From a phage: DNA of 64,000 nt. Location: sequence record PZ229304.1, one strand, 5' to 3'. Numbering within the stretch: position 1 is the stretch's first letter; each line of letters starts with the position of its first letter. Made by a program: the position numbers and the translations under genes. Shown here piece by piece: positions 3,413-44,391 of the stretch. Under the pieces are notes generated by a model. That model searched no databases, had not been told where the DNA came from, and was given only the letters and a program-made list of their open reading frames with translations.

Positions 3413-6187
3413 TTAGTTTACCAGTTTATTTATATCTGGTAAAAGATTTATTTCACCTAAAAAATCACCTTCACCTTCCTCTAACCAACTCTCATATGCT
3501 TGTGCATGATTATAGTTACCATCAAAAGAATCTGCAACAAATTTTTCTACAGTTTTTCGAGATGTGTCAGCGCCAAATACACCAAGTTTAATACCATTGA
3601 TCGGTAAAGTGGTACTTGTTGGTACTTTCTCTGTTGCAACACGGTTGATATCTATAATCTCCTGTACGGTTGTGTTCCATTGTAAGCATTTAACACAACG
3701 GGTATGCGCTACATACAGTAGGTTTCGCTCTGCCTCTTCCAGTCCTACCCATTCACCAGTCTTTTTATCATAGTTGGAAGGAAAATCATTAGCAACAATA
3801 ACCTGATCCCACTCCAAACCTTTAGACTTGTGTGCTGTAGTCAGTGTGACTTTTGCTGTAGGAGAATTTCTATGCGTTCTAAGTGTATGTGCTATAGTGT
3901 TTGCCTTACCAGAAACTACGATGTTTAACAAGCGTTTAGCATCTGGATCAGCCTCTGCACACTCAACAAATTCATTCCAGTCTGCGTAAGGTAATACAGT
4001 TTCATGTTTTACTTTCTCAATATCTCCTCTCCGAAGAGCATTAACACTATCTACCATAGAGATAAAATCCCTGGTATCTACGTTAATAATAATTTCTTCC
4101 CCATCTGCAATACGATCCATTGCCTCCATAAGCAAGGTTAAATTCTTGCGAAAGATGATAGTGTAAGGTTTTGTATAGTCTACAACATCTGATTTGTAGC
4201 TACCTACTACAGTATCAAAGCCTTTACCAACCAAAGGGTGACGCAAAGGTTCTTTATCGCTTAAAATCATATTGGCAATGTTTGCCACTTTGGGGCCAAA
4301 ACGGAAGCAAGCAGTTAATGGAAGCTCTGCTCCATACTTAGCTGTTTCAATCATCATATTAGAGCTACCTCTAAATTGATAAATGCAGTTGTGGCTAAGA
4401 ATTTCATTACCAAAGAAGTTAGCAGTATCCTCTACTTCAATATCATAATAGATACCTTCACTATCTACAATGTCCACAATTTCTTCTGCCGTTACAGTAT
4501 CACCATCTTTTACCAACACAGACATGCCTTTAAACAAACCCGCCGCCGGAATTAAAGTATATTTGGCGGTGTTCACAGAGGACATGCATTCTTTTAAAGA
4601 TGCAAACGGCACTATTTCAAGGATCTTTTGTGCAAAACTCAATGCTTCACGATAAGAATTGAAATATTTACGTACACGGTAACGACCTTCCAACTTAGCA
4701 ACACTTACGCTTACACCTGCTTCAATGAGTGAAGCATAGATTGACATTTCACTTTCTGTCCACTCAAAACTAACTTGTGTTCCTTTACAACCTTGTGCTC
4801 GCAAAGTCACTGTTAACATTTTTCTTTCATCTACTGCACAATTGATGCTGTGCCAATGTGGATAAGCAAAATGATAATCTTTATCCTCTAAAAGTTTAAA
4901 ACCGTTTTGTCCGAATTGTTCAAAAATGTTATTGATCCTTTCTTGATTAATGCCGCGTGAACTTGCTTCAAATACACAAGTAGGAATGCCATATTGTAAA
5001 CTGTATGCCATTTCTTTTTCCATAGCAGCTTCACGGTTTTCAACAATATCCAACACCCATAATTTCTGTGCTTTTTCAGAACGTGTACGTTGCCCCAGTT
5101 TAGAAAAACCTTCTTTATCATCGAATTTGTTAGTGATCCCTACTCGGAAACCTAAATCTTTCCTCCACATTAGGTATACCACCATCTGATCATCTTTCAG
5201 AACATAGGATGAAGCCCAAATACGATGGTTATGTGTCATATCTAAAGTTTTACCTGTGGCAGTAATAATATTCCTACCTTTTGTACGTGTAGATAAAGTC
5301 TTATTTGTTACTTTTCTAAATGTAATTTTACCATTAGAATAAGACTCTACCTTATCACCGATTTGTAGGTCTTTCATTGTAACCTGACCATTCTCGGTAT
5401 TAAGTACCGTGTTTTCCGACACACATTGGAATTCATCGCCCACTACCACAATTTGTTTTGCAGATTTAGCATTTCGCAGAATAGACAAGAATGCAGGGTT
5501 AACATCCTGGAATTCATCACCAAAAATAATGTCATAACCAAGGTCAGCACCTGATAATTCAAACAATTTTACATAGGTGTCATGCGTCATCAAAGTATCT
5601 GTGTTAGGATCGATGCGCTCTCGCCACAATTGTTTTGCATACTTAACTACTTCTGTAATTAGTTTGTGTTCGTTAATACCTTTTCTTTTAATATCTGCAA
5701 GATGTACACTAGGAAAATGTTTACGGCTGATAAAAGGATCATCCGAAAATTCAAACTTACCTACGGTTTGCTTGATCATTAAACCAATCATAGCACGAGT
5801 TAACAGTGTTTTCCCTCGTTTATCAATAAGATTATTAATCTTAAATTTCTTTGCTATCTCGCTACCTGTACCTGCAACGTTAACATACTGTCCTTCTGGT
5901 CGTGACAGTTTTGCACGTAAACGATGATCCAGGAATTGATAGCAAATAGAATGCAATGTACGGCATTCTACATTTAGTGGCATCTTACGTCGTGCTTCTT
6001 CTGCCATGCTTTTATTGAAAGCTAAGTAAAGAATGCGATCTTCTGTACTGTTAGCCAGCAAATAAAGTGTTGACGTTTTGCCTGATCCAGATTTAGCTTG
6101 GATAGTTAAAAAGCGATGGTCTGGAAAAGCCTCCTTAATAGCTGTTTGCTCTTCTGTTGGAGTGAAGCTCAACTCTTTCTTAGCCAT
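3413..6187 (-). CDS. UvrD/PcrA-like SF1 DNA helicase interrupted by an in-frame intein
   Basis: Walker A (AKSGSGKTST), motif II (GDEFQDVNP), motif III split as GDEFQ / C-IYQFRGS, motif V (TAHKSKGLEWDQVIV), motif VI (LLYVAHTRC). Start trimmed from TTG at 6226 to ATG at 6187 with RBS. Confidence 0.8.
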   Translation of the reverse strand: MAKKELSFTPTEEQTAIKEAFPDHRFLTIQAKSGSGKTSTLYLLANSTEDRILYLAFNKSMAEEARRKMPLNVECRTLHSICYQFLDHRLRAKLSRPEGQYVNVAGTGSEIAKKFKINNLIDKRGKTLLTRAMIGLMIKQTVGKFEFSDDPFISRKHFPSVHLADIKRKGINEHKLITEVVKYAKQLWRERIDPNTDTLMTHDTYVKLFELSGADLGYDIIFGDEFQDVNPAFLSILRNAKSAKQIVVVGDEFQCVSENTVLNTENGQVTMKDLQIGDKVESYSNGKITFRKVTNKTLSTRTKGRNIITATGKTLDMTHNHRIWASSYVLKDDQMVVYLMWRKDLGFRVGITNKFDDKEGFSKLGQRTRSEKAQKLWVLDIVENREAAMEKEMAYSLQYGIPTCVFEASSRGINQERINNIFEQFGQNGFKLLEDKDYHFAYPHWHSINCAVDERKMLTVTLRAQGCKGTQVSFEWTESEMSIYASLIEAGVSVSVAKLEGRYRVRKYFNSYREALSFAQKILEIVPFASLKECMSSVNTAKYTLIPAAGLFKGMSVLVKDGDTVTAEEIVDIVDSEGIYYDIEVEDTANFFGNEILSHNCIYQFRGSSNMMIETAKYGAELPLTACFRFGPKVANIANMILSDKEPLRHPLVGKGFDTVVGSYKSDVVDYTKPYTIIFRKNLTLLMEAMDRIADGEEIIINVDTRDFISMVDSVNALRRGDIEKVKHETVLPYADWNEFVECAEADPDAKRLLNIVVSGKANTIAHTLRTHRNSPTAKVTLTTAHKSKGLEWDQVIVANDFPSNYDKKTGEWVGLEEAERNLLYVAHTRCVKCLQWNTTVQEIIDINRVATEKVPTSTTLPINGIKLGVFGADTSRKTVEKFVADSFDGNYNHAQAYESWLEEGEGDFLGEINLLPDINKLVN
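4388..5425 (-). mobile_element. intein (346 aa) inside helicase motif III; central domain may be a homing endonuclease of unidentified type
   Basis: N-terminal Cys (codon aca at 5423-5425 on plus, TGT on minus), block B-like TxxH (MTHNH), C-terminal YDIEVEDTANFFGNEILSHN followed by +1 Cys (4385-4387); removing it restores the canonical motif III GDEFQ-CIYQFRG. Confidence 0.7.
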
Positions 6188-6188
6188 T

Positions 6189-6665
6189 TCAACCTCTCTT
6201 AATTTGTTTAACAAGCATAGGAACAAAGTCTCGTTTTAAAATTTGTTCAATAATATGATCAGGTAGCTGTTGGAAATTATAATTAAAAGCTACTGTCTCA
6301 CCTTTAGGTGTTTCTACCCGCACATATAACATGTTACGAAGTTTATCCACTTGTGCTGTATATTCTAAACCATGTAATTGATGCATTGCAAACATCAAAT
6401 CATCAGTTTCAGTTTGGAATCTATCCCTTCCCTGCATCAAGGACAAGGAAAAAGGTAGATTTTCCCTAAGAGCCACCTTCTTAGGCACTAGTGAAGGGAA
6501 ATACTCCCCAATAACTGCCTGTGTAAGCTGAATACACTCTTTTTCAAGCTGGTTTTGTTCCTTGAGTTCACAAACACTCTTTTGTAAAGTGTTAACCTCT
6601 TTTTGCAAAGCTGCTAGTTGAGCACTTAACTTTCTTTTTTGATTACGACCAAAACGTTTAGACAT
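6189..6665 (-). CDS. hypothetical protein
   Basis: 158-aa track ORF, ATG start. Confidence 0.45.
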   Translation of the reverse strand: MSKRFGRNQKRKLSAQLAALQKEVNTLQKSVCELKEQNQLEKECIQLTQAVIGEYFPSLVPKKVALRENLPFSLSLMQGRDRFQTETDDLMFAMHQLHGLEYTAQVDKLRNMLYVRVETPKGETVAFNYNFQQLPDHIIEQILKRDFVPMLVKQIKRG

Positions 6666-15008: not shown

Positions 15009-16202
15009 ATGGCAGCACCAAAATCATGGGAACAATATAAAGAAGAGTGTCAACCTATTGCGAATAATAAAGGGATTGAGATCCTAGGATATGTTGAACC
15101 GTTTATAGGTTGTGATACGAAAATGATTCTACGCTGTAGGCAGGAACATGAATGGAAGACTTGTAGTATTAGTAATTTCAAGCACGGTAACAGTTGTCCT
15201 ATCTGTTCTGGTAAGAAGCCGTTAACATGGGAAACAGAATTGCCGATCTTGGAAGAGATAGCACAGAAGAAGGGGTATCAGGTGTTAGGGTACGTTGGAG
15301 AATGGAAAGGGAATAAAACAAAACTTGATTTGTTGTGCCATTGTGGGAATAGATGGCAAAGTACAGCAATTCATCAATTTAAAGGCGGTCGAGGTTGTCC
15401 ACAATGTAGGGGGGAGAATACAAGGAAGGCACTAACAATGTCCGACGATCAACATATTGCAGATTTCTTTTCTACAGGGAAATTTAAGGAAGGCACTATC
15501 TTCACTAACACAGGAACACGGAGTAAAGGATGCAGGCATAGTATCTGGATGGTTGAATGTCCTGTTTGCTCTCATGATGAATATGTTCAAGCAGGTGTTT
15601 GTGATGGTAAATTTTACTCTGAAGGAAATAACCTTAAACGAGGGTGCATTCCGTGTCGTTGTGGAAACTATCGGTATACAGAAGACCAGATCACCTATAG
15701 GGTAAAAAAGGAAGTAGAAGGGCAAGGGTATGTCTGGGTAGGTTGGATCGGTAAACCGTCTAGAAGTCACGGTAAGTTTAAATATCTTTGTCTTGTGCAT
15801 GGGGAACAGACAGGGAGGGCTAATAACTTATTAAGCCTCGGTCAAGGTTGTCCACAGTGTGCTGGTCATAATCAACAGCAATTATATATTAATATTGTTA
15901 AAGATAATGATATTATAGTGGCTCTTAAGTTTGGTATAGCTAAAGATAGTGATAGGCGATTAAATAGTCAAAATAGTTGTAATATGTTTTTTATGGAGCG
16001 TATTTGTTTATATGATTTTAGCACAGTGAAACAATGTAAGGCTGCTGAAAGAGCTATAAAGAAAAAATTAAAAACTGGTATTTTAACGGAAAGAGAGTTG
16101 AAAGACGGTTATACAGAAACAGTAAGTGTTTCTGATTTGGAAAATCTTCAAGAAATTATTACACAACATGGTGGCAAATTAGTATATAATAAGGAGATGT
16201 AA
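15009..16202 (+). CDS. tandem zinc-ribbon repeat protein with C-terminal GIY-YIG-like (T5orf172-type) putative nuclease domain
   Basis: About four repeats of GY..G.....K......C..GH.W.....F..G..CP.C.G (CPICSGKK, CPQCRGEN, CPVCSHDE, CPQCAGHN); C-terminus YINIVKDNDIIVALKFGIAKD..RRL..N...ERI.LYDF resembles the T5orf172/GIY-YIG pattern by recollection. Confidence 0.5.
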   Translation: MAAPKSWEQYKEECQPIANNKGIEILGYVEPFIGCDTKMILRCRQEHEWKTCSISNFKHGNSCPICSGKKPLTWETELPILEEIAQKKGYQVLGYVGEWKGNKTKLDLLCHCGNRWQSTAIHQFKGGRGCPQCRGENTRKALTMSDDQHIADFFSTGKFKEGTIFTNTGTRSKGCRHSIWMVECPVCSHDEYVQAGVCDGKFYSEGNNLKRGCIPCRCGNYRYTEDQITYRVKKEVEGQGYVWVGWIGKPSRSHGKFKYLCLVHGEQTGRANNLLSLGQGCPQCAGHNQQQLYINIVKDNDIIVALKFGIAKDSDRRLNSQNSCNMFFMERICLYDFSTVKQCKAAERAIKKKLKTGILTERELKDGYTETVSVSDLENLQEIITQHGGKLVYNKEM

Positions 16203-16754
16203 ATGCGGATTACTGATAAATATGTGTTCTTCTTCTCGGCAAAAGATGAATTTAGCAACTGGTATCTATCATCTTTTATTGAACCTTTAGCTCCCAAGTA
16301 TAATAATTCTATTACAAGTTCTGTTGAATTTACTTGTGTGGAACAATATATGATGTGGAGAAAAGCATGTTTGTTTTATGATTACAACATTGCATCTTCT
16401 ATTTTAACCGGAGATCTAAGATATACAGGAGAAAAAGAACAGGCATATTATAAGCGACTAGGTAGATTAGTTAAAGATTACGATGAAGCTACTTGGACTT
16501 CTTTACGGGAGAAGATTGTCAAGCGTGGTTTGTATCTTAAATACACACAAAATGAAGATCTCAAAAATAAACTTATCGCTTACGCAGATAAGGAGTTCGT
16601 AGAGGCAAGCCCTTATGATTCTATTTATGGTATCAAAATGGGAATGTGGGATCGTGATGTGGAAAATAAGGACTGTTGGAAAGGACAAAATCTTTTAGGA
16701 AAATGGCATACAGACCTTGCTGTTTATCTAAAAGCACAATCTGATATTTCCTGA
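16203..16754 (+). CDS. NADAR (YbiA-like, DUF1768) domain protein
   Basis: FFFSAKDEFSNWYLSSF, FTCVEQYMMWRKACLF and SPYDSIYGIKMGMWDRD..KDCWKGQNLLGKWHTDLAV parallel the YbiA motifs FYS..D.YG.FSNF, TSEHYFQA.KF and D.YWG.G..G.G.N.LG. Confidence 0.7.
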   Translation: MRITDKYVFFFSAKDEFSNWYLSSFIEPLAPKYNNSITSSVEFTCVEQYMMWRKACLFYDYNIASSILTGDLRYTGEKEQAYYKRLGRLVKDYDEATWTSLREKIVKRGLYLKYTQNEDLKNKLIAYADKEFVEASPYDSIYGIKMGMWDRDVENKDCWKGQNLLGKWHTDLAVYLKAQSDIS

Positions 16755-16967
16755 TATTTTGAAAATTTTTATTTTTATAAAAAGGGGTGTGGGTTTCATG
16801 TACGGAAATCCACCCTCTGAATAATATATCCAGAGTAAATATTATTCTGTACTCTGTTAATAAAGTATTTAATTTGTTTGTTGGACTATGGTATCTGATC
16901 TTTAAAAGGCATACTATCTCTTAACTACTACTTATAACAGAACAGTAAAATCATTTTTATAAAAAGG

Positions 16968-17170
16968 ACAAAATTATTTAAAGTTTTTACAGATTTTTGG
17001 GTACAAATTTTGAAAATGAAAAGTTCAAGTTTGGTCAAAATTATTTAAAGTTTTTGTATGTATTTCTATCCAGATTTTGAAAATGAAAACTTCAATTTTT
17101 TAAAAATTCCCCAGTTTATTTAAAGTTTTTTTGCCTTTTTCCGTAGAAAAATCAAAAATGAAAAGTTCAA
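16968..17170. repeat. three tandem direct repeats of about 67-72 bp (TATTTAAAGTTTTT ... TTTTGAAAATGAAAAGTTCAA), iteron-like
   Basis: Read directly in non-coding DNA. Confidence 0.6.
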
Positions 17171-17196
17171 TTTCGTGTTTTTATAGGTGTGCGTAT

Positions 17197-17306
17197 GATA
17201 ATCATTCTCATTTGTAAATGAGAATCATTATCATTTAAGTATGTAAGTGATAATCATTCTCATTAAGAGAATGAGAATCATTAGCAAATGAGAATTTTTC
17301 TCATTT
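17197..17306. promoter_or_regulatory. cluster of Fur-box-like palindromes (GATAATCATTCTCATT x2, AATGAGAATCATTATC)
   Basis: AAATGAGAATCATTATC matches the Fur consensus GATAATGATAATCATTATC at about 16/19 by hand. Confidence 0.45.
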
Positions 17307-17567
17307 AGAGAATAACGCGCAGGGGCGGTGTTTGTCTCGCGCTCCCGTGTCCCCTCGCCATACAATAAGAATAGCATAACCAACAACAAAAGCAAGCGAT
17401 TATTTTTATCTTTACATTTCTTTACAAATTTATTTTAGACGAGCTACCGGCGATCAACCTTCCAACCAGTGCCCCCTGGTATGTTAGCCCCGCCTTTACG
17501 CCGTGGGGGTGGCGCTTCCTCTTCTGTATGTAAAACAGTATAAGCCCGATCCCTGGGCTTGTCAAGA

Positions 17568-17834
17568 TTATTTTTTGTTTTCTTGCCAGGATAGGACACC
17601 TAACCAAAAATACATGTCGCCCCGCGCCCCTGGTGGGATCTTGCTTTCCCCGCCGCCACTGCAAGCCCATAGATAACCATTAGCGAACGGATCAAAGTTT
17701 TCTATTTCTTCCACCTTATGATCGCCCAGGTTGAGAACGGTTTCGACCTTTAAGCCCGTTGCGCTTGCTACCTGGTGCACCGTGCCGCCTTGCCAGCCCA
17801 ATGAGTGCATAAGGTGTAAAGTAGTATTTGTCAT
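17568..17834 (-). CDS. hypothetical protein (uncertain)
   Basis: 88-aa ORF with ATG and weak RBS in a GC-rich stretch where overlapping spurious frames are common. Confidence 0.25.
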   Translation of the reverse strand: MTNTTLHLMHSLGWQGGTVHQVASATGLKVETVLNLGDHKVEEIENFDPFANGYLWACSGGGESKIPPGARGDMYFWLGVLSWQENKK

Positions 17835-17933
17835 GGTATCGCCCTTTCTTTGATGTGCGCCCTGGTTGGCGCGGTAGAAAGATAATAGCCGTTTCCTTTA
17901 TAGATAGCAAGCAAAAAAAGAAATGAAAAAAGA

Positions 17934-18266
17934 TTAAAAAAATGGTTGACGTTCCTCACCTGGTAGCGTAATATTCATCTTGTCGAGGGGGGCAAGGCAC
18001 AACGACAATAAACAATAGGCGGGTGCAATGCATGACGGGCAAAGGTGAGGATCTCCACAATCCACCGTCACAATAACATTACTTATAAAAGGTTGATAAC
18101 GATGATCAAGAAAGAAAATAGCTTGACGGTTGGAACGATTAACGCTATCATTCTCGCCGTTCCATTTTGGATTGTAGTGGCGGTTGTTATTTTCTAAAAA
18201 ATATTCTTGACAACGTTTTTTAATCTGATAAGATGTATCACATAGGGCGGCAATAGTGCCGCTCAT
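17934..18266 (-). CDS. hypothetical Cys-rich protein (uncertain)
   Basis: 110-aa ORF with ATG start, but its 5' end overlaps the promoter/hairpin of the first plus-strand cassette. Confidence 0.2.
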   Translation of the reverse strand: MSGTIAALCDTSYQIKKRCQEYFLENNNRHYNPKWNGENDSVNRSNRQAIFFLDHRYQPFISNVIVTVDCGDPHLCPSCIAPAYCLLSLCLAPLDKMNITLPGEERQPFF

Positions 18267-18286
18267 AACAGAAGAGAGAAATAATC

Positions 18287-18559
18287 ATGGCATCATATAG
18301 CGCATCAATGATCGTAGCTGGCATCACTGGTAAACCTATGCGCGGTGGCGGATCTTTCGCTAACATCAATATTGATGGACGTTTATCCCTGGACGCAGCG
18401 ATCACCGTGGCACGGGAAACGTTTAAAAAAGAATGTAATTTCAATAAACAAGATTATCTCGGTTTCGCTATTGAAAAAACCGCGCGATTTGTGGATTATA
18501 AAAGCCCGAAAATGATCGACACTACACTAAAAGCGCAAGATGTAGCGTTTTTGCTTTAA
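18287..18559 (+). CDS. hypothetical protein (cassette gene)
   Basis: Preceded by TTGACA promoter, CACATAGGGCGGCA..TGCCGCT hairpin and AGAGAG RBS. Confidence 0.5.
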   Translation: MASYSASMIVAGITGKPMRGGGSFANINIDGRLSLDAAITVARETFKKECNFNKQDYLGFAIEKTARFVDYKSPKMIDTTLKAQDVAFLL

Positions 18560-18562
18560 GGC

Positions 18563-18622
18563 TTGACACTGAAAAATACTTTGTTAATATATACCACATA
18601 AGGCGGGGAAATGGTTTCCCGC
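18563..18622 (+). promoter_or_regulatory. sigma70-type promoter (TTGACA-N16-TAATAT) plus 5' leader hairpin GGCGGGGAAATGGTTTCCCGCC
   Basis: Read directly; same architecture recurs through the array. Confidence 0.6.
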
Positions 18623-18645
18623 CAAATCAAAGAAAGGGTAATGCA

Positions 18646-19008
18646 ATGAGCAAGCAAATCAATACTATCATGTTTAATCTGGTATCTTTCCGCGATGACG
18701 TGAAAAACCTTTCGCGTGGTGCAGTGGATGCACGGATCGAAAGCTATCGCACACAGATCGCAACGTTACCGCTGAAACGTGATCAACATGCCGCTAATAT
18801 GATGCTTGATGCTATGATTAAAAAGATGATTCAATGTGATCTTACTCTGGCTTATGAATATGCTGGCGATCTCTTTGTAACGTATAACAAGCCCGTTCCA
18901 GGTATGAGCACCACGGAAGAATTGCATGCCTTAAATCTGCGACAAGATGCATGGGATAACATGCGCCGTGTTATGGTATGGGTAGAAAGCGGCAAAATTT
19001 ACGCGTAA
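18646..19008 (+). CDS. hypothetical protein (cassette gene)
   Basis: 120-aa track ORF downstream of promoter-hairpin unit. Confidence 0.5.
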   Translation: MSKQINTIMFNLVSFRDDVKNLSRGAVDARIESYRTQIATLPLKRDQHAANMMLDAMIKKMIQCDLTLAYEYAGDLFVTYNKPVPGMSTTEELHALNLRQDAWDNMRRVMVWVESGKIYA

Positions 19009-19083
19009 AGATTGACATTACACGAAAACCTGATAAGCTATCTTAAAGCGGGAATAGTTCCCGCTTACATAGGATAAAACTTT

Positions 19084-19230
19084 ATGAAACAATATGTAAT
19101 GAGTATTCATACCAAAAACGGCGCTACTGTTACGACTCCGGCACGGTTTGCACTTGTAAACCGTTGCAAGAGACTAAAACGAGAGCTAAAAAATAACCGT
19201 GCAACCGGTTTTAAACGCTGGGGAGGATAA
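19084..19230 (+). CDS. small basic protein (48 aa)
   Basis: Own translation MKQYVMSIHTKNGATVTTPARFALVNRCKRLKRELKNNRATGFKRWGG; preceded by TTGACA promoter and GCGGGAATAGTTCCCGC hairpin. Confidence 0.3.
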   Translation: MKQYVMSIHTKNGATVTTPARFALVNRCKRLKRELKNNRATGFKRWGG

Positions 19231-19232
19231 TC

Positions 19233-19493
19233 TTGTTTTTTCTAAAAGTTTTTGATAATGTGATCGCTTTTGAACATGCTACGACGTTCGACCTGGCGAG
19301 ATACGCTATCAGGTTTAAAGATAATGTTTATCCCCGTGCTGGCGGCGGTTACACTATTTTTAATCATCGTAACGCTCAATTAACGGATATAACTAATCCA
19401 GGCCCTGGAGTGTATCGCATAGGCTGGCTACCGTCAAAAGACGCGGCAAGCATGTTTAAGGTATGTAAACTACTAACAGAAGAGGCGAACTAA
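19233..19493 (+). CDS. hypothetical protein
   Basis: 86-aa track ORF, TTG start just after GGAGGA. Confidence 0.35.
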   Translation: MFFLKVFDNVIAFEHATTFDLARYAIRFKDNVYPRAGGGYTIFNHRNAQLTDITNPGPGVYRIGWLPSKDAASMFKVCKLLTEEAN

Positions 19494-19494
19494 C

Positions 19495-20049
19495 ATGGGG
19501 CGTGAGTATGTGATCCAGTCCTGGGTAAAGCATGACGCTAATGATCCGCGCATAATACCAGATGACATGATCGATCACATGGTAGGGTATAGCGGGGAGC
19601 AGATAGGAAATCGAGCGGCAAAGAGCAACGGCAACACAAAGGCGCGATCCGTTCGCCCTGGTTGGCTGGCAAATGGTAACGCTGACATTGCAAGCGCCGC
19701 AGATCCAAGCGATGACGCTAAAAATAATCCCTTGTACAGCATTGATCCGGCTTTTAAGGTGTTGGAAGAGTATCCCGCTAAATTAGCCGCACTAGATAAG
19801 GCATACGAAGAAAAGCGCATGGCATGGACTGTATACAACACCGCTAAAATGGTGCTAGATGCAAAATTGATTAAAGCCCAGGAGAAGATCAATAAACTTG
19901 TTACCATAGCGCAAGAGGAAGACCAGGACGACCAGGAGGAAGAGGAAGAAATCATGCCTATCCTGGAAGAGGAAGAGATCCAGCCATACATGCCGACGGA
20001 AGAGGAAAAAAGACAAGCCCTAAAAAATTACGAAAATTGTATTGTGTAA
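19495..20049 (+). CDS. hypothetical protein with acidic C-terminus
   Basis: 184-aa track ORF; the longer antisense frame 19575-19991 is treated as a shadow. Confidence 0.45.
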   Translation: MGREYVIQSWVKHDANDPRIIPDDMIDHMVGYSGEQIGNRAAKSNGNTKARSVRPGWLANGNADIASAADPSDDAKNNPLYSIDPAFKVLEEYPAKLAALDKAYEEKRMAWTVYNTAKMVLDAKLIKAQEKINKLVTIAQEEDQDDQEEEEEIMPILEEEEIQPYMPTEEEKRQALKNYENCIV

Positions 20050-20195
20050 GGCTTGACATATGCAAACAAGCCCCGTAATATGTACCACATAAAGCGGGGC
20101 AACGCCCCATAAGGTGAAATAAAAAATCACTTGACACCTGAAATCAGTAAGCTATAATGCTTATATAGATTGAAACATTACTAAGGAATAAAAGC

Positions 20196-20375
20196 ATGGC
20201 TATTATTGCAAAGACTGAGATCGTAGGTTTAGATTCTATCATCCTGGCATATGAGGAAGCTATAGAAATGTATGTGGTTTCCTATGGTGATTATATCCGT
20301 GAATATAAATCTATTGATCTAGCTTTTGAATGTTATATTCGCCAGGTAAATAAAGCATACGATGATTATCGTTAA
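20196..20375 (+). CDS. small hypothetical protein (59 aa)
   Basis: Own translation; TTGACA-N17-TATAAT promoter at 20131-20160 and AAGGAA RBS. Confidence 0.3.
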   Translation: MAIIAKTEIVGLDSIILAYEEAIEMYVVSYGDYIREYKSIDLAFECYIRQVNKAYDDYR

Positions 20376-20470
20376 AAGTTTTAGTCTTGTGCTATTGACA
20401 ACGAACGATAGTACAAGCATAATAACTTTTATCGGGAATACTCCTAACTAATCAAAAGAGATTAAAGACT

Positions 20471-20836
20471 ATGGCTAAAAATATCAATGTTTCTGCTTAT
20501 GCTACCCTGGCTAACACTGCTAAAATTGAACTATCCAGCATTGAAGCGGTACATATTAGCGCCCGTCGCTGGTTTCAAAAGTCTTATGGTAATACTTATT
20601 TCTCTTTGATGGTTGACGTTGAGATCGGCGGTAAACTGATTGAAGTCGTTAACGTTCCGTTTCAATATGGCTACGGGGATCATTTTGATACCGTTGCCCT
20701 AGAAGAGTTTAGCAAGGTTATCAACCTGGAAGGTAAAGACTTTTCAAATTATGCTTACCTTTCCCGCTTTTGCCGTGATAATGGGATCGCTGTATACAGT
20801 CATGCAAGCGATGTTAAACGTAAAAAAGATTTATAA
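20471..20836 (+). CDS. hypothetical protein (cassette gene)
   Basis: 121-aa track ORF with TTGACA promoter at about 20394. Confidence 0.5.
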   Translation: MAKNINVSAYATLANTAKIELSSIEAVHISARRWFQKSYGNTYFSLMVDVEIGGKLIEVVNVPFQYGYGDHFDTVALEEFSKVINLEGKDFSNYAYLSRFCRDNGIAVYSHASDVKRKKDL

Positions 20837-20924
20837 AAAGCATTGACAGCACGAATAAAAAGCATATAATACTTATATCGAGAGCGGGAATAGTTCCCGC
20901 CTCACTGAAAAAGAGATTAACATC

Positions 20925-21164
20925 ATGGCTAAATCTAAAATGTACAACGGTCACAAAAATAAAACTCATTGGAATGTAAGCCTTTGGATCAACAATGATG
21001 AAGGTTTTTATAATCTTGCACGTGAATTTATTGCAGCTAACACCAATAAGAATGACGCAGCGCGTGATATGATGCTATTTCTTGAAAGTATGGATCAAGA
21101 TAAAACGCCAGACGGTTACAAGTTCAGTAAAACTGCAATCCGCGCCGCGATGGTTGGAATGTAA
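20925..21164 (+). CDS. hypothetical protein (cassette gene)
   Basis: 79-aa track ORF; TTGACA-N16-TATAAT and GCGGGAATAGTTCCCGCC hairpin upstream. Confidence 0.5.
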   Translation: MAKSKMYNGHKNKTHWNVSLWINNDEGFYNLAREFIAANTNKNDAARDMMLFLESMDQDKTPDGYKFSKTAIRAAMVGM

Positions 21165-27202: not shown

Positions 27203-27586
27203 ATGAGCAATATCATCAACCTGGCGGCTACTGTAAACGGTAAAGATTTTAACGGCGCTGTAGATCGTGATCCTATGTGGTGCTTATCCGTGTTTAAAGG
27301 CGATCTGGTTGAAGTTAGAACAACCGAAGGTTATAGCGACGATTATAAATGCGAGATCCATTTACACAACTGGTACACGGGTAAAACTTATGCGCTGAAT
27401 CATGCGTTTATCGGCAAGGTTGAATATAGAGAAATGATCGACGAAGAAACGGGGCAAGATTTTAGCGATTATGTTTATATCCGTTCCGAGACATTAGCAG
27501 AACGTTTGATCGAGAAAATGAAAGCAAAAAATAAAATTAATTTAGCTCATTGGATTGATATAACAAACGATCCAGCTTATAAGTAA
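27203..27586 (+). CDS. hypothetical protein
   Basis: Trimmed to ATG 27203 (AGGAA RBS); TTGACA promoter at about 27131. Confidence 0.5.
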   Translation: MSNIINLAATVNGKDFNGAVDRDPMWCLSVFKGDLVEVRTTEGYSDDYKCEIHLHNWYTGKTYALNHAFIGKVEYREMIDEETGQDFSDYVYIRSETLAERLIEKMKAKNKINLAHWIDITNDPAYK

Positions 27587-27600
27587 ATGACACTTCACAC

Positions 27601-27629
27601 CAGGGCGCACAAAGCGCCCTTTCTTTTTA
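27601..27629 (+). terminator. intrinsic terminator
   Basis: AGGGCGCACAAAGCGCCCT hairpin plus TTCTTTTT. Confidence 0.65.
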
Positions 27630-27833
27630 CCTAAATAAAGATGATAGCTTTTACCTATCAAAAACGTTCACCGAAAAAAGTGAATAGATCGCGGTATCGA
27701 GCTAATCAAGGAGCAGATGAACAACCATACCATGAAGATCATAAGGCGCTTACAGCGTGTTTTAGACCGCTTATTTTTAATTTCTTCATGCAACTATTTG
27801 GCAAAAACAGCCTTTTTCTTGTCTTTCCTCTTA

Positions 27834-27907
27834 AATGATAATCATTCTTATTTATAGCTGATTATTTATGCAATAAACTGCATAATGCAATAATGATAAT
27901 CATTCTT
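27834..27907. promoter_or_regulatory. two Fur-box-like sites (AATGATAATCATTCTTA and AATAATGATAATCATTCTT)
   Basis: Second site about 16/19 to the Fur consensus by hand. Confidence 0.45.
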
Positions 27908-27909
27908 AA

Positions 27910-28255
27910 CTTATGACCATCTAACCTATAAAATAATAAGTTATCTAACTAAATTAAAACTAATTATCTTACTTTTATTTATAACTTACTGTTACTATCT
28001 CATTGATAACCTTATATTAAACAACAATAACTAATATAAATCATTACTAAGCTAAATATAATCTATCTAACCTTTAAAACTATAACTATAATCTATTGAA
28101 TTATTGCACAAAGTAACTATTAAATCGTTAGTAACATTACTAAATAATTAATATCCTATCTATTTATGATCTAATCTTTACATTCCTATCTATTACCTAA
28201 ATAATCATTTCATATAGTAATCATTTCATACAATAACTATAACAAGAAATATAAT
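27910..28255. other. G-poor, AT-rich non-coding tract with short reiterated motifs (CTAAC, CTATC, TAACT)
   Basis: Strong strand asymmetry visible by eye; no ORF. Confidence 0.5.
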
Positions 28256-28274
28256 TCGCAAGCGTATCATTAGC

Positions 28275-28440
28275 AGCCTATGCCGGACACATAGGCGGCT
28301 AATAATAACGCAACTACACACCCCACATAATAACTATCACCGATAGTTATTATTTGTGCTTATGTAGCTTGCAACAACTGCAAGCGCAACAATATACATG
28401 GTATATTGTATCCCTTACATTGTTGCGGTGCGTTATTATT
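28275..28440. repeat. cluster of nested palindromes / inverted repeats
   Basis: GCCTATG..CATAGGC, ATAATAACTAT..ATAGTTATTAT, CTTGCA..TGCAAG, ATATAC..GTATAT, and a long-range pair TAATAATAACGCAAC / GTTGCGGTGCGTTATTATTA. Confidence 0.55.
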
Positions 28441-28766
28441 AGCTAATGTTTAGAACATTGGCTATAATATAAGCTAAATCATAAGCTATGCAATAATAAA
28501 CATGGTGAATAATGACATTGATGATCATAATGCGCCACCTTCCAGGGGGCGCTATGTGAACACAAAGAAATCTTTCTTGTCAAGAAAATATTACTACTAT
28601 TGCGCAAAATTATTTATATCTGAATAGATGATTTTTTATGCTATTGCCCCCTTGATTATTACTATTTGTTGCCCTAACTATTGTCATTTGTTGAGCCTAC
28701 TTTCTTAAAAGCGCAATAAATCAGAATTATCTTGATTTTTAGTCGGTTTTATAGTACAGAAAGTAT

Positions 28767-28785
28767 GCAAATGATAATCATTATC
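28767..28785. promoter_or_regulatory. near-consensus Fur-box-like site GCAAATGATAATCATTATC
   Basis: 17/19 identity to GATAATGATAATCATTATC by hand. Confidence 0.5.
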
Positions 28786-28951
28786 AGCTATCTTCCACGG
28801 GTGGCACTATTTCACGCCAGATCATTTCATTTGGCAAGGTGTATATAGATGTTTAGAAATGCCAAGCCATTGATTTACTTAGAATTTATCTGTTTTGTTG
28901 TGAGTAGTGCCTTTCTTGCTCAGAAAATAATCAAAAGTCTTATAAGTCATT

Positions 28952-28983
28952 GAATGATAATGCAAATGATAATTATTCTCATT
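28952..28983. promoter_or_regulatory. degenerate Fur-box-like repeats
   Basis: GAATGATAATGCAAATGATAATTATTCTCATT. Confidence 0.35.
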
Positions 28984-29428
28984 GATATTTGAGGGGGACG
29001 GTCGGCAGAAATCGGGGGGCGCTGAAAATCGCGTTAAGCACCTCTCGCAAGCGAGCAGTATTTTGCGGCAAGTTATTGATATTATTGACTTTACGCTTAA
29101 GAAAAGGGGGCGTGTCGAAATAAATCGGGTATACCGGAAAATTTTTGTGGCATAGATATTTATTTGTCTATATTATGTACAAAGGGGTGTGTTAAAAATA
29201 ATAGGTATATATAGAATAATTGATAGGGAAATCCTATACTAAATCCTTCATTAATGATGTTCCTATGTTGCTGTTCTTGTAATAGATGAAAAGACGCTAT
29301 ATGATGTGTGGCATGAAACGTAAACTTATAAGATGCAAATAATGCTTGCATTGAATAGAAATGTCTATACACTGTGTTTCATAAGATATGCAATATCGCG
29401 CATAACAAACTACTAATGAGAGGTGTAA

Positions 29429-41260: not shown

Positions 41261-42073
41261 TTACTTAGTCAAATGATCTTCTATCATTTTTATGAAAGCA
41301 GGATTGCTAAAAGCATCTGCTGCCTTTTCTCTATAAACAAAGACTCCTCTATCTTCGTAAAGAAGAGTTTCTTCGTAATTAATTCCTGGGTTAACAACAA
41401 TCATTTTTGTACCCATAGTAAGTGCAGGGAATAATTCCCAATTAAAATTGATAACTTGGTTTGAACATCCTACTACAACAACCAAATCTTGCATGGTCAA
41501 AGTATCAAACAAGTGAGCCATATCTGCATACAAAGGTGCAGCCTCACCAAAAAATACAACATTAGGCTTCACCCAGTTATAATCATCTATGTTTATACTA
41601 TTGTAACCAATGTCTACCAGTGTTTTGTAATCTCCAGGATGCATACGGTAAACTACTTCAGGAAGATATCCGTGCACGTGAATAACAGAATCCCTGTCTA
41701 CACCTGCTCGCTCTAGTAGGTCATCAACGTTTGTTGTCAAGTTTACTACTTGGTTAGGATATTCCTTAAACCACTTTGCTATTTGAATATGTGCAGCATT
41801 AGGTTGTACATCTTTAAGCTCAACACGTCTTTTGTTATAAAATTCGTGTGTTTTGGCATACAAATCCATACCGTTTTCGTCTACACCACCAACCACTGGA
41901 AGATCTGGTGATGTTCTCACACGATAACCTGCTTGGAAAGCTCCAATATCGCAGATCTCTTCTAAATCCCATTCTTCCCATAGGGCACGACCACTATCTG
42001 TGTCTGTTCGGAATGTTCGAATCCCACTGTCTGCACTTAAACCAGCTCCACTAACAAAAATTACTCTTCGCAT
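41261..42073 (-). CDS. Sir2-family (sirtuin-like) NAD-dependent protein lacking the zinc-binding Cys module
   Basis: GAGLSADSGIRTFR, TTNVDDLLERAG, HG, PNVVFFGE motifs; no CxxC..CxxC pairs. Confidence 0.7.
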   Translation of the reverse strand: MRRVIFVSGAGLSADSGIRTFRTDTDSGRALWEEWDLEEICDIGAFQAGYRVRTSPDLPVVGGVDENGMDLYAKTHEFYNKRRVELKDVQPNAAHIQIAKWFKEYPNQVVNLTTNVDDLLERAGVDRDSVIHVHGYLPEVVYRMHPGDYKTLVDIGYNSINIDDYNWVKPNVVFFGEAAPLYADMAHLFDTLTMQDLVVVVGCSNQVINFNWELFPALTMGTKMIVVNPGINYEETLLYEDRGVFVYREKAADAFSNPAFIKMIEDHLTK

Positions 42074-43401: not shown

Positions 43402-44391
43402 CTATTCCTCCATACATTTAAGAATATGTGCAATGACAGGTATAGTCCAACCGTTACCTAACATCTTATATGCTTGTGTGTTACTACTCAGCTTAAAGTA
43501 GTCATCTGGCACACCTTGCAAGCGACAACACTCTTTAACCGTTAACTTTCTATAATGTACGCCTTCACTCAATTTTTCAAAAGCATCTAGATATCTTCCA
43601 GGTGGAATGTAGGCTAATAGTACGTCTTTAGGCACAGTCGTGAGGCAACGAGTTTTTTCACTGTCCTGAACTTCCAAACAATGTACCAAACGATCAGTTT
43701 TAGATGTACTACGTTTGCCATTTTCATTAATTCTACGCCCATATATTGCTGCCGGATAAAAAACCAGTTGTCTGCGACTCTTTTCAAAATACTGTTCTAT
43801 ATTACCACCTTTGGCATAATTTGCATCTATGCAATAAGCCTTATCTCTGTCTACAATACTATCATCTTCAATGATATCTTGCAACACTTCATTGGTGATC
43901 TCCCAGGGTTTTATTTCCCAGTTGCACCAGTATAAACGTTGTCTATTCTGTGCCGTGAAATCTGCGGAGTTAATGAATACGGGATCAACACCTAAGTAAC
44001 TTGTGATCACGTTTTCCCACTCCACTTTCATCTTAACGTTTTCAAGCATGAACTTAACATTAGGATTAAACTTTTTAATATGTTCAAGAATTTCAACATA
44101 TTCGAAGAATAGCTTAGATCGCGGATCTTGAAAGTTCAAACCCTTACCAGAAGAAGAGAAGCCTTGACACGGACTACCACCTAACAAAAGATCAATTTCT
44201 CCCCACGGGATATCCCATTCTCTCCATTTTGTAACATCACCTAACTGAATAATATCTGGAAAATTTGCTTGGCTTTCAGCTATGGCAAATTTGTCTAATT
44301 CTGAAGCATAATATGTATCTACTTCAATACCTGCACTTTTTAGCGCAAGCATTCCTCCTGACATACCATCAAAAAGACTTAAAACTTTCAT
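43402..44391 (-). CDS. DNA (cytosine-5)-methyltransferase, orphan
   Basis: Motif I LSLFDGMSGG, motif IV GGSPCQGFS, motif VI ENV, motif VIII QNRQR, motif X GNGWTIPV; no adjacent restriction endonuclease recognised. Confidence 0.8.
   Translation of the reverse strand: MKVLSLFDGMSGGMLALKSAGIEVDTYYASELDKFAIAESQANFPDIIQLGDVTKWREWDIPWGEIDLLLGGSPCQGFSSSGKGLNFQDPRSKLFFEYVEILEHIKKFNPNVKFMLENVKMKVEWENVITSYLGVDPVFINSADFTAQNRQRLYWCNWEIKPWEITNEVLQDIIEDDSIVDRDKAYCIDANYAKGGNIEQYFEKSRRQLVFYPAAIYGRRINENGKRSTSKTDRLVHCLEVQDSEKTRCLTTVPKDVLLAYIPPGRYLDAFEKLSEGVHYRKLTVKECCRLQGVPDDYFKLSSNTQAYKMLGNGWTIPVIAHILKCMEE

Follow-up and report, generated by a model that had tools for sequence, protein, structure and literature searches.

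The window analysed here is a stretch of 64,000 nt of phage DNA (sequence record PZ229304.1), which belongs to a Justusliebigvirus coliphage (phi92-like, Stephanstirmvirinae). We describe an element of this window that consists of an AT-rich tract almost without G on the plus strand (27910-28250), followed by a module of partly nested hairpins (28262-28443), and that forms the final unique sequence to the left of the direct terminal repeat at the right genome end. The helices of the module covary among relatives, and its location leads us to propose, tentatively, that the element acts in cis at the genome end.

The element is located in a gap of 1842 bp between called genes (27587-29428). A sequence search with the 1.83-kb gap matched approximately 100 phage records in the gap and its flanks, the best of them 95-99% identical, and all classified matches of the gap were Justusliebigvirus or related Stephanstirmvirinae, with genomes of ~146 kb. 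The neighbouring genes encode small proteins of unknown function and a gp30.8-like protein. The latter is the product of the left neighbour gene (27203-27586), which is a homologue of Phi92_gp248 and the last gene of the right end, whilst the genes to the right of the gap (29429 onwards, plus strand) are counterparts of the first genes in the phi92 record and are left-end genes that point inwards. These gene correspondences on both sides show that the gap coincides with the start/end point of the phi92 genome record. The preliminary description of the window had placed the region at the junction between a GC-rich array and an AT-rich block of small genes, but the relevant landmark is the genome end. 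ARAGORN detected no tRNA gene in positions 1-64000, in a family reported to carry 10-16, so the 'GC-rich array' is not a tRNA array within the window.

The gp30.8-like gene has an intrinsic terminator at 27602-27620 (plus strand), with a 7-bp stem of which six pairs are G-C, followed by TTCTTTTT. The gap had been described as free of genes over 1.8 kb, which is true of called genes; it does, however, contain a possible small gene of 46 codons (27717-27857, plus strand). This ORF (open reading frame) begins MNNHTMKIIRRLQRVLDRLF, and has a strong AAGGAG ribosome-binding site in front of it. Twelve relatives have an intact copy, and the records of some relatives carry an annotation for it, but that of phi92 has none. 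A terminator scan found no intrinsic terminator belonging to the ORF, and its 3' end overlaps the first of the Fur-like boxes considered below. Should the ORF prove to be a gene, the non-coding part of the gap would shrink to 27858-29428.

Genome ends and Fur-like boxes

Short direct terminal repeats are reported for the genome ends of Stephanstirmvirinae (PMC12695924). The repeat of phage BME3 was determined as 342 bp by PhageTerm (PMC12210895) and that of Schickermooser is 328 bp (PMC6563267). In the phi92 record, the left direct terminal repeat (DTR-L, 1-343) is identical to the right one (DTR-R, 148270-148612), and both map to 28694-29036 of the window. The UAB_1 record has the same terminal-repeat annotation, and in Klebsiella phage phi1_175008, which is ~63% identical here, the identical 343-bp ends of the record align to 28694-29036 as well. 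As mapped from these three records, the direct terminal repeat, and with it the physical genome ends, is the 343 bp at 28694-29036. A repeat at 28767-29108, which would start at a Fur box and corresponds to the BME3 feature, was rejected, as phi92, UAB_1 and phi1_175008 all give 28694-29036. The BME3 feature is shifted rightwards by 73 nt, exactly its distance from the end of the record, and the offset was therefore treated as an annotation shift.

The left boundary of the repeat is abutted by two tandem units of ~22 nt ending in ATTTGTTG (28650-28693, plus strand). The copy number of these units varies, from about one to four among 12 genomes, and conservation resumes exactly at 28694. A similar word with an AGC(C/A) motif follows both boundaries, TTG/AGCCTAC on the left and TTA/AGCACCTC on the right (the slash marks the boundary); in longer form, the words read TTG/AGCCTACTTTC (28650-28700) and TTA/AGCACCTCTC (29030-29050), and the similarity holds in phi1_175008 too. 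The switch from variable units to conserved sequence and the shared boundary word support 28694 and 29036 as the boundaries. From their sequence, the boundary words and the ATTTGTTG units are likely to be the terminase cut and recognition sequences, the units being better candidates for terminase binding than the hairpin module.

With the repeat at 28694-29036, tract and module fall in the final stretch of unique sequence ahead of the right-hand terminal repeat. They end 244 bp to its left, the centre of the module being ~340 bp from it, and the region between module and repeat is variable and indel-rich. The general idea of a DNA-processing site, put forward in the preliminary description, holds. 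Mapping of the termini had been proposed there as a check; the records of relatives, which are the basis of the placement given here, locate the termini beside tract and module.

Fur-like boxes were defined by their match to GATAATGATAATCATTATC (19 positions) or to the 7-1-7 motif TGATAATnATTATCA. Such sites are enriched in the window, with 11 that match at least 15 of the 19 positions (0.35 expected) and 10 matches to the 7-1-7 motif (0.96 expected). Around the element, strong 19-position sites start at 27831, 27889, 28767 and 28962, and 7-1-7 matches at 27836, 27894, 28772 and 28967. The first two of these form a pair (27836-27850 and 27894-27908), both TGATAATCATTCTTA, with two mismatches each and scores of 14/19 and 16/19; within 27836-27908, the pair flanks a short repeat of the ATGCAATA type (27868-27895). 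The other two lie inside the terminal repeat and comprise a perfect 7-1-7 box, TGATAATCATTATCA (28772-28786), and a box with a single mismatch (28967-28981). Fur-like sites had been reported to lie among the palindromes, but no site of at least 14/19 was found between 27889 and 28508, none occurs within the palindromes, and the 7-1-7 matches lie outside or at the edge of 27910-28450. It is the flanks and the terminal repeat that carry the strong sites. Judging from these matches, host Fur may bind the ends of the phage genome, and the presence of boxes in the terminal repeat prompts a question of its own, namely whether a host iron regulator binds there. Similar boxes are present in the matching region of two distant relatives, ukendt (L009, 5063-5091) and FBKp34 (L010, 4945-5100).

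The G-poor tract and the hairpin module

The 341 nt of the tract (27910-28250) contain 143 A, 55 C, 13 G and 130 T on the plus strand, equivalent to 3.8% G and 80% A+T. Across the whole 64 kb, the number of G per 340-nt window averages 61.5 (standard deviation 13.3), and the minimum, 12, is found at 27896. The earlier observation of ~340 bp nearly devoid of G was thus confirmed, and the tract is extreme in two further respects. It is the AT maximum of the 64 kb (80.6% versus 62.8%, standard deviation 3.5) and the least stable duplex (-1.04 versus -1.27 kcal/mol per bp, standard deviation 0.042). As a single strand, the tract folds into essentially no structure. The short reiterated motifs attributed to it did not exceed expectation, the recurrence of 6- to 8-mers being within that of a composition-matched Markov-1 model (p 0.1-0.5). 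TRF returned two weak rows in all over the region. Within the tract it reported no array of 16-nt units, and the single row there is a weak one of 12 nt at the right edge (28230-28254, score 36). What does stand out is a 16-nt tandem unit, ATCATTTCATAyArTAA (28204-28236, plus strand), which is the only clear repeat in the tract; it has two copies here and one to four in relatives, and is annotated as repeat_region in arall, inny and muut.

Directly 5' of the hairpin module, every lineage examined has a G-poor zone in which C exceeds G. It extends over 200-600 nt in Phapecoctavirus, the phiWec genus, Klebsiella phages, Citrobacter phage Tr1 and metagenome contigs; in Phapecoctavirus, C accounts for 20-28% and G for 9-14% of the corresponding 300-600 nt. 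The depletion of G is most extreme in Justusliebigvirus, and beyond this genus the sequence of the tract no longer aligns. What is conserved is a property of the tract rather than its sequence.

Given a length of 341 bp against the 343 bp of the repeat, the tract was also considered as the terminal repeat itself; this was rejected, as each record has a single copy of it, which maps outside the repeat. To the right of the terminal repeat, the plus strand is poor in C (29137-29236, five C per 100 nt), with a C-free run of 52 nt (29181-29232). This stretch mirrors the tract on the left, G being scarce on either side of the repeat in the strand whose 5'-to-3' direction leads towards it.

The dense, partly nested inverted repeats previously noted over ~170 bp are real and lie within 28262-28443, at 28265-28307, 28298-28312 with 28429-28443, 28324-28356, and 28379-28419. 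As RNA, a 196-nt module folds at -68.7 kcal/mol on the plus strand (z -6.6) and at -84.2 kcal/mol on the minus strand (z -8.2); as DNA, the minus strand folds at -50.2 kcal/mol (z -8.9). The z-scores were calculated against 200 shuffles, none of which folded as well in any of the three cases.

Conservation of the helices was assessed in an alignment of 22 distinct module sequences from at least five lineages, which was enlarged to 29 with five further metagenome lineages. All of the following hairpins are assigned to the minus strand. The first hairpin, P0 (28262-28311), has a core of 28276-28282 paired with 28290-28296 and a loop of CCGGACA; in the 22 sequences, the core is 100% Watson-Crick, with three pairs changed on both sides. 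The 3' arm of P0 overlaps the 5' arm of P1, making the two pairings alternatives. P1 is a long-range helix of 15 bp (28298-28312 with 28429-28443) that closes the module and encloses a loop of 116 nt. Its arms are 100% complementary and are paired in all 330 cells of the 22 sequences and all 435 cells of the 29, every one Watson-Crick, although four pairs have changed on both sides and show five additional pair types (compensated variants) between them. Hairpin P2 (28324-28356; core 28331-28338 with 28342-28349) has five of eight pairs changed on both sides. P3a is a palindrome, GCTTGCA-5 nt-TGCAAGC (28367-28385), that never varies in the alignment. The alternative to it is the long hairpin P3, an inverted repeat (28379-28397 with 28401-28419; 28367-28421 for P3a and P3 together), the apical part of which is deleted in other genera. 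The unpaired CAACTACAC (28311-28319) is likewise invariant in the alignment, and both this sequence and the palindrome GCTTGCA..TGCAAGC may be protein contacts.

It should be noted that the BME3 record (PP239276.1) contains three copies of the repeat region and a junction in which the equivalent of position 29108 is joined to that of 28281. This junction falls 2 nt before the P0 loop, and may be either a misassembly or the trace of a real hairpin-associated molecule.

RNAalifold, applied to the 22 sequences, predicts four helices in which 11 pairs have changes in both partners. A structure composed of P0, P1, P2 and P3a has standard pairs in 98.4% of 814 cells and 12 doubly changed pairs; none of 500 shuffles reached any of the four main pairing measures, and sliding the partner by 1-3 columns reduced pairing to 23-47%. 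With the 29 sequences, the number of covarying pairs rises to 14. By this covariation, the module is under selection for base pairing. Within the genus, no other part of the gap is as conserved (pi 0.022, compared with 0.03-0.06 in neighbouring segments and 0.27 in the variable repeats). The module is present in 133 phage records, all of them relatives of the subfamily, as well as in four IMG/VR contigs and nine metagenome contigs. No match was found in 72,556 plasmids or in 185,579 bacterial and archaeal genomes (one genome per species). A search of the gap against Rfam 15 gave no family for the module, and only two chance-level matches (E 0.54 and 0.78), neither of which is on the module.

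The mismatches of the hairpin cluster favour one specific strand, the minus strand, as only there can they form wobble pairs. In the plus-strand-derived structure, G.U/G.T cells are absent, and its 13 non-Watson-Crick cells all consist of A.C, the counterpart of a wobble on the minus strand. This includes every mismatch of P2, where A.C on the plus strand corresponds to G.U or G.T on the minus strand. The same bias is seen in the extension of P0 (C.A in 19 of the 22 sequences) and, in the alignment inspected by eye, in the long form of P3, and the consensus fold of the minus strand is better (-55.8 versus -45.1 kcal/mol). These patterns are suggestive of the minus strand as the folding strand, either as RNA or as single-stranded DNA.

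Possible roles of the element

Neither a discrete transcription unit nor the classical hallmarks of an origin were found, and the position beside the repeat remains. For this reason, the explanation we favour, tentatively and at less than even confidence, is that tract and module form a cis-acting DNA element used in replicating or processing the terminal repeat, as opposed to a gene or a Fur switch. In such a mechanism, the G-poor tract, with its 80% A+T, would be the point at which the duplex opens most easily at a concatemer junction. Once single-stranded, the minus strand of the ~180-nt module would fold, forming P0 or P1 and then P2 and P3. Synthesis primed on the minus strand as template would proceed to the right, across the short repeats and then the terminal repeat, and would duplicate the single repeat copy of the concatemer junction to give a complete right end. 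Alternatively, or additionally, the element may mark the end at which packaging starts. The inward-pointing genes of the left end, together with the analogy to phage T7, suggest that the left end enters the cell first and that the right end is packaged first. We infer that the module would act as DNA and not as RNA, that its role would be in repeat duplication or packaging rather than in general replication, and that synthesis would take the direction given above.

Several points weigh against a cis-acting role in end formation. The proposal draws on sequence and layout, and the right end of T7 is alike in layout but not in sequence. Where T7 has a single imperfect hairpin, the module has approximately four helices, a long-range closing stem and alternative pairings, and a sigma-70 promoter scan of the gap found no phage promoter equivalent to T7 phiOR. 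The combination of invariant unpaired nucleotides with a 15-bp helix that closes a multi-branch loop of 116 nt would be more usual in a functional RNA. The strand bias derives from few independent substitutions, at three sites for the structure derived from the plus strand and at seven to eight for that derived from the minus strand. Finally, the terminase cut sites and the adjoining variable repeats could be sufficient for packaging, which would leave the element free for another role.

A general replication origin, whether primary or secondary, was the other candidate in the preliminary description, which likened the layout to an unwinding element next to structured protein-binding sites. 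An unwinding-prone tract does lie next to a structured element, but the palindromes behave as covarying helices and not as protein-binding sites. If the element were an origin, the tract would unwind, the minus-strand hairpins would serve as a single-strand initiation signal for a phage or host primase, and the proximity of the repeat would be incidental. As the least stable 340-bp duplex of the window, the tract qualifies as a DNA unwinding element; a one-strand hairpin cluster adjoins it, and the element is kept throughout the subfamily. The two roles may also be compatible, the phiOR region of T7 doubling as a secondary origin. The usual hallmarks of an origin are nevertheless missing: k-mer statistics against a Markov-1 model gave no iterons above chance in the tract, no DnaA box with up to one mismatch was found between 24147 and 30439, no replication-initiator gene was recognised beside the gap, where the genes encode small proteins of unknown function and the gp30.8-like protein, and a comparison with 72,556 plasmids showed no similarity to plasmid initiation signals. 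Skew analysis, suggested as a check on the origin, gave no origin signal, with GC skew merely following gene orientation, as it also does in rV5 (PMC3606486). In addition, a second AT-rich non-coding region of the window, with three direct repeats of ~70 nt (16953-17173), appears no less origin-like. We regard an origin at this site as rather unlikely. The sequence GTGTC in the P0 loop (minus strand) was considered as a T7-like primase site and dropped, the Klebsiella-phage lineage having GTTTC.

A structured non-coding RNA is a further possibility to which we attach a low probability. Such an RNA would be transcribed leftwards from the minus strand, with the module as its 5' domain and the C-poor tract as an unstructured tail; with a promoter in or near the terminal repeat overlapping the Fur boxes, it might be responsive to iron. 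The multi-branched fold, the long-range closing helix and the invariant unpaired nucleotides are in keeping with an RNA, as are the strength of the minus-strand fold and the restriction of wobble pairs to that strand. However, G.T is the best-tolerated mismatch in DNA hairpins too. Weak promoter-like sites on the minus strand overlap the Fur boxes (28807-28780 and 28982-28954), but a sigma-70 scan found promoter-like sites at a level no higher than in shuffles, and across four lineages none is conserved in position beside the module. Terminator scans in the same lineages likewise identified no conserved terminator flanking it. The module has no Rfam family, and the region that separates it from the repeat is variable and indel-rich. 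TTGCAA and TACAAT in the module were rejected as a promoter, as their spacing differs between lineages. As a candidate for a phiOR-like promoter upstream of the tract, the scan gave only a 9/12 sigma-70-like site, at 27906-27934; the motifs of phage-specific promoters may differ. We give a slim chance to a minus-strand structured RNA of an undescribed kind, limited to Stephanstirmvirinae, encoded at the side of the genome end and acting in genome-end formation or packaging (a role that the packaging RNA of phi29 fulfils in another manner), the expression or action of which might be tied to host iron via the Fur boxes of the terminal repeat.

The layout of a Rho-dependent terminator is also present on the plus strand, where 341 unstructured nucleotides with 55 C and 13 G (a C/G ratio of 4.2, on the sense strand of the upstream genes) are followed by hairpins. 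In this scenario, the unstructured plus-strand RNA would load Rho and the hairpins would pause the polymerase, so that rightward transcription would not reach the terminal repeat or, in a concatemer, the early genes of the genome that follows. The composition of the zone in Phapecoctavirus and the lack of an intrinsic terminator for the 46-codon ORF would fit this role. It is nevertheless improbable: C is not enriched in the tract (16%, below the window mean of ~19%), the signal being a loss of G, and there are only 27 YC dinucleotides in the 341 nt. A pause site needs neither four compensated helices nor a minus-strand bias, and a strong intrinsic terminator already ends the upstream operon.

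Very improbable is an operator array in which the inverted repeats would be duplex half-sites for a dimeric DNA-binding protein (a phage regulator, the small terminase subunit or host Fur): TATTATTAGC does occur in both orientations (28265, 28298 inverted, 28434), with more copies in Klebsiella and Citrobacter phages, the GCTTGCA..TGCAAGC palindrome is invariant and Fur-like boxes are enriched in the window, but the lineages differ in compensated pairs of P0, P1 and P2, in arall both P1 arms have changed while the third TATTATTAGC copy has not, and the module contains no Fur-like site of at least 14/19.

As defined here, the element represents a precise target for compensatory mutagenesis, end-mapping and plasmid transduction. 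It also provides a landmark for opening and orienting the records of Stephanstirmvirinae, many of which are arbitrarily permuted.

Elsewhere in the window, the non-coding region 16755-17420 ranks second both for AT content and for low duplex stability. Its three ~70-nt direct repeats are followed by a second Fur-like cluster, an array of four to six 7-1-7 palindromes with the consensus AATGAGAATCATTCTCATT (17196-17307; Fur-like sites starting at 17191-17286), and no Rfam match was found in 16500-21000. By its sequence, this region is itself a candidate for an origin or a regulatory hub. The window further contains a UvrD-like helicase gene interrupted by an intein (3413-6226, minus strand), a gene for a protein with CapR and T5orf172 domains (15009-16202, plus strand), a Sir2-family protein gene (41261-42073, minus strand) and a C5 cytosine DNA methylase gene (43402-44391, minus strand). 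Four records named 'Campylobacter phage' (MG065639, MG065645, MG065656 and MG065689) are ~96% identical to the coliphage region over its full length, and are probably mislabelled or derived from contaminating coliphages.

Comparison with known systems

A literature search found no published description of this element in Stephanstirmvirinae; the phi92 genome paper (J Virol 2012) was outside that search. Several known systems share individual features with it. The cos site of lambda (cosQ-cosN-cosB) and headful pac sites are also cis-acting DNA at the concatemer cut, with accessory elements upstream, but they are short protein-binding sequences without covarying helices. The packaging RNA of phi29, which is relevant only if the module acts as RNA, is structured, has a length of ~170 nt and is encoded beside a genome end. 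The module has neither homology to it nor an Rfam match, and phi29 is protein-primed, without a terminal repeat of this type.

A cluster of hairpins on one strand beside easily melted DNA is likewise characteristic of the complementary-strand origin of G4, the primosome assembly site of phiX174, and the ssi signals of plasmids combined with origin unwinding elements. In contrast to ssi signals, the element shows no plasmid similarity and lies in a double-stranded phage genome of 146 kb, by the terminus. The iss region of T5 (bioRxiv 10.1101/866236) resembles it in being a large untranslated region linked to the terminus, with repeats, inverted repeats, palindromes and group-wide conservation. 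Boxes for host proteins form a further parallel, those of T5 being for DnaA and those described here Fur-like, without DnaA boxes. However, the T5 region is inside a 10-kb repeat at the first-entering end, whereas the element is outside a 343-bp repeat, at what is presumed to be the last-entering end.

The closest correspondence in layout is with the right end of T7, which we measured for comparison. It comprises the phiOR promoter, an AT-rich tract (GC 30-35%), the short gene 19.5, a palindrome, short repeats and the terminal repeat; the palindrome has 19-nt arms and is centred 190 bp to the left of the repeat, and the short repeats are CCTAAG/ACCTAAAG (SRR). In both phages, an AT-rich tract, a palindromic element, short repeats and the terminal repeat follow one another in this order, with all but the last in the unique DNA to the left of the right-hand repeat. 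In both, the genes run towards the right end, and the genome has short direct terminal repeats, which have to be duplicated at concatemer junctions (PMC4281155). The T7 repeat is shorter (160 bp versus 343 bp), and the AT-rich tract described here is longer and almost free of G. In passages of PMC4281155 that cite Chung & Hinkle 1990 and Molineux 2006, T7-type concatemers are described as having one repeat copy per junction, which must be duplicated. The same article outlines strand-displacement and primase-initiated models for this duplication, and refers to a hairpin form of the DNA that occurs in T7-infected cells (citing Chung & Hinkle 1990). Repeat duplication at the concatemer junctions of short-repeat phages has been worked out in part, and mainly for T7. 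At the equivalent place in a large group of therapeutically used myoviruses, the relatives of phi92 and phAPEC8, there is a compact, strongly covarying and strand-biased element.

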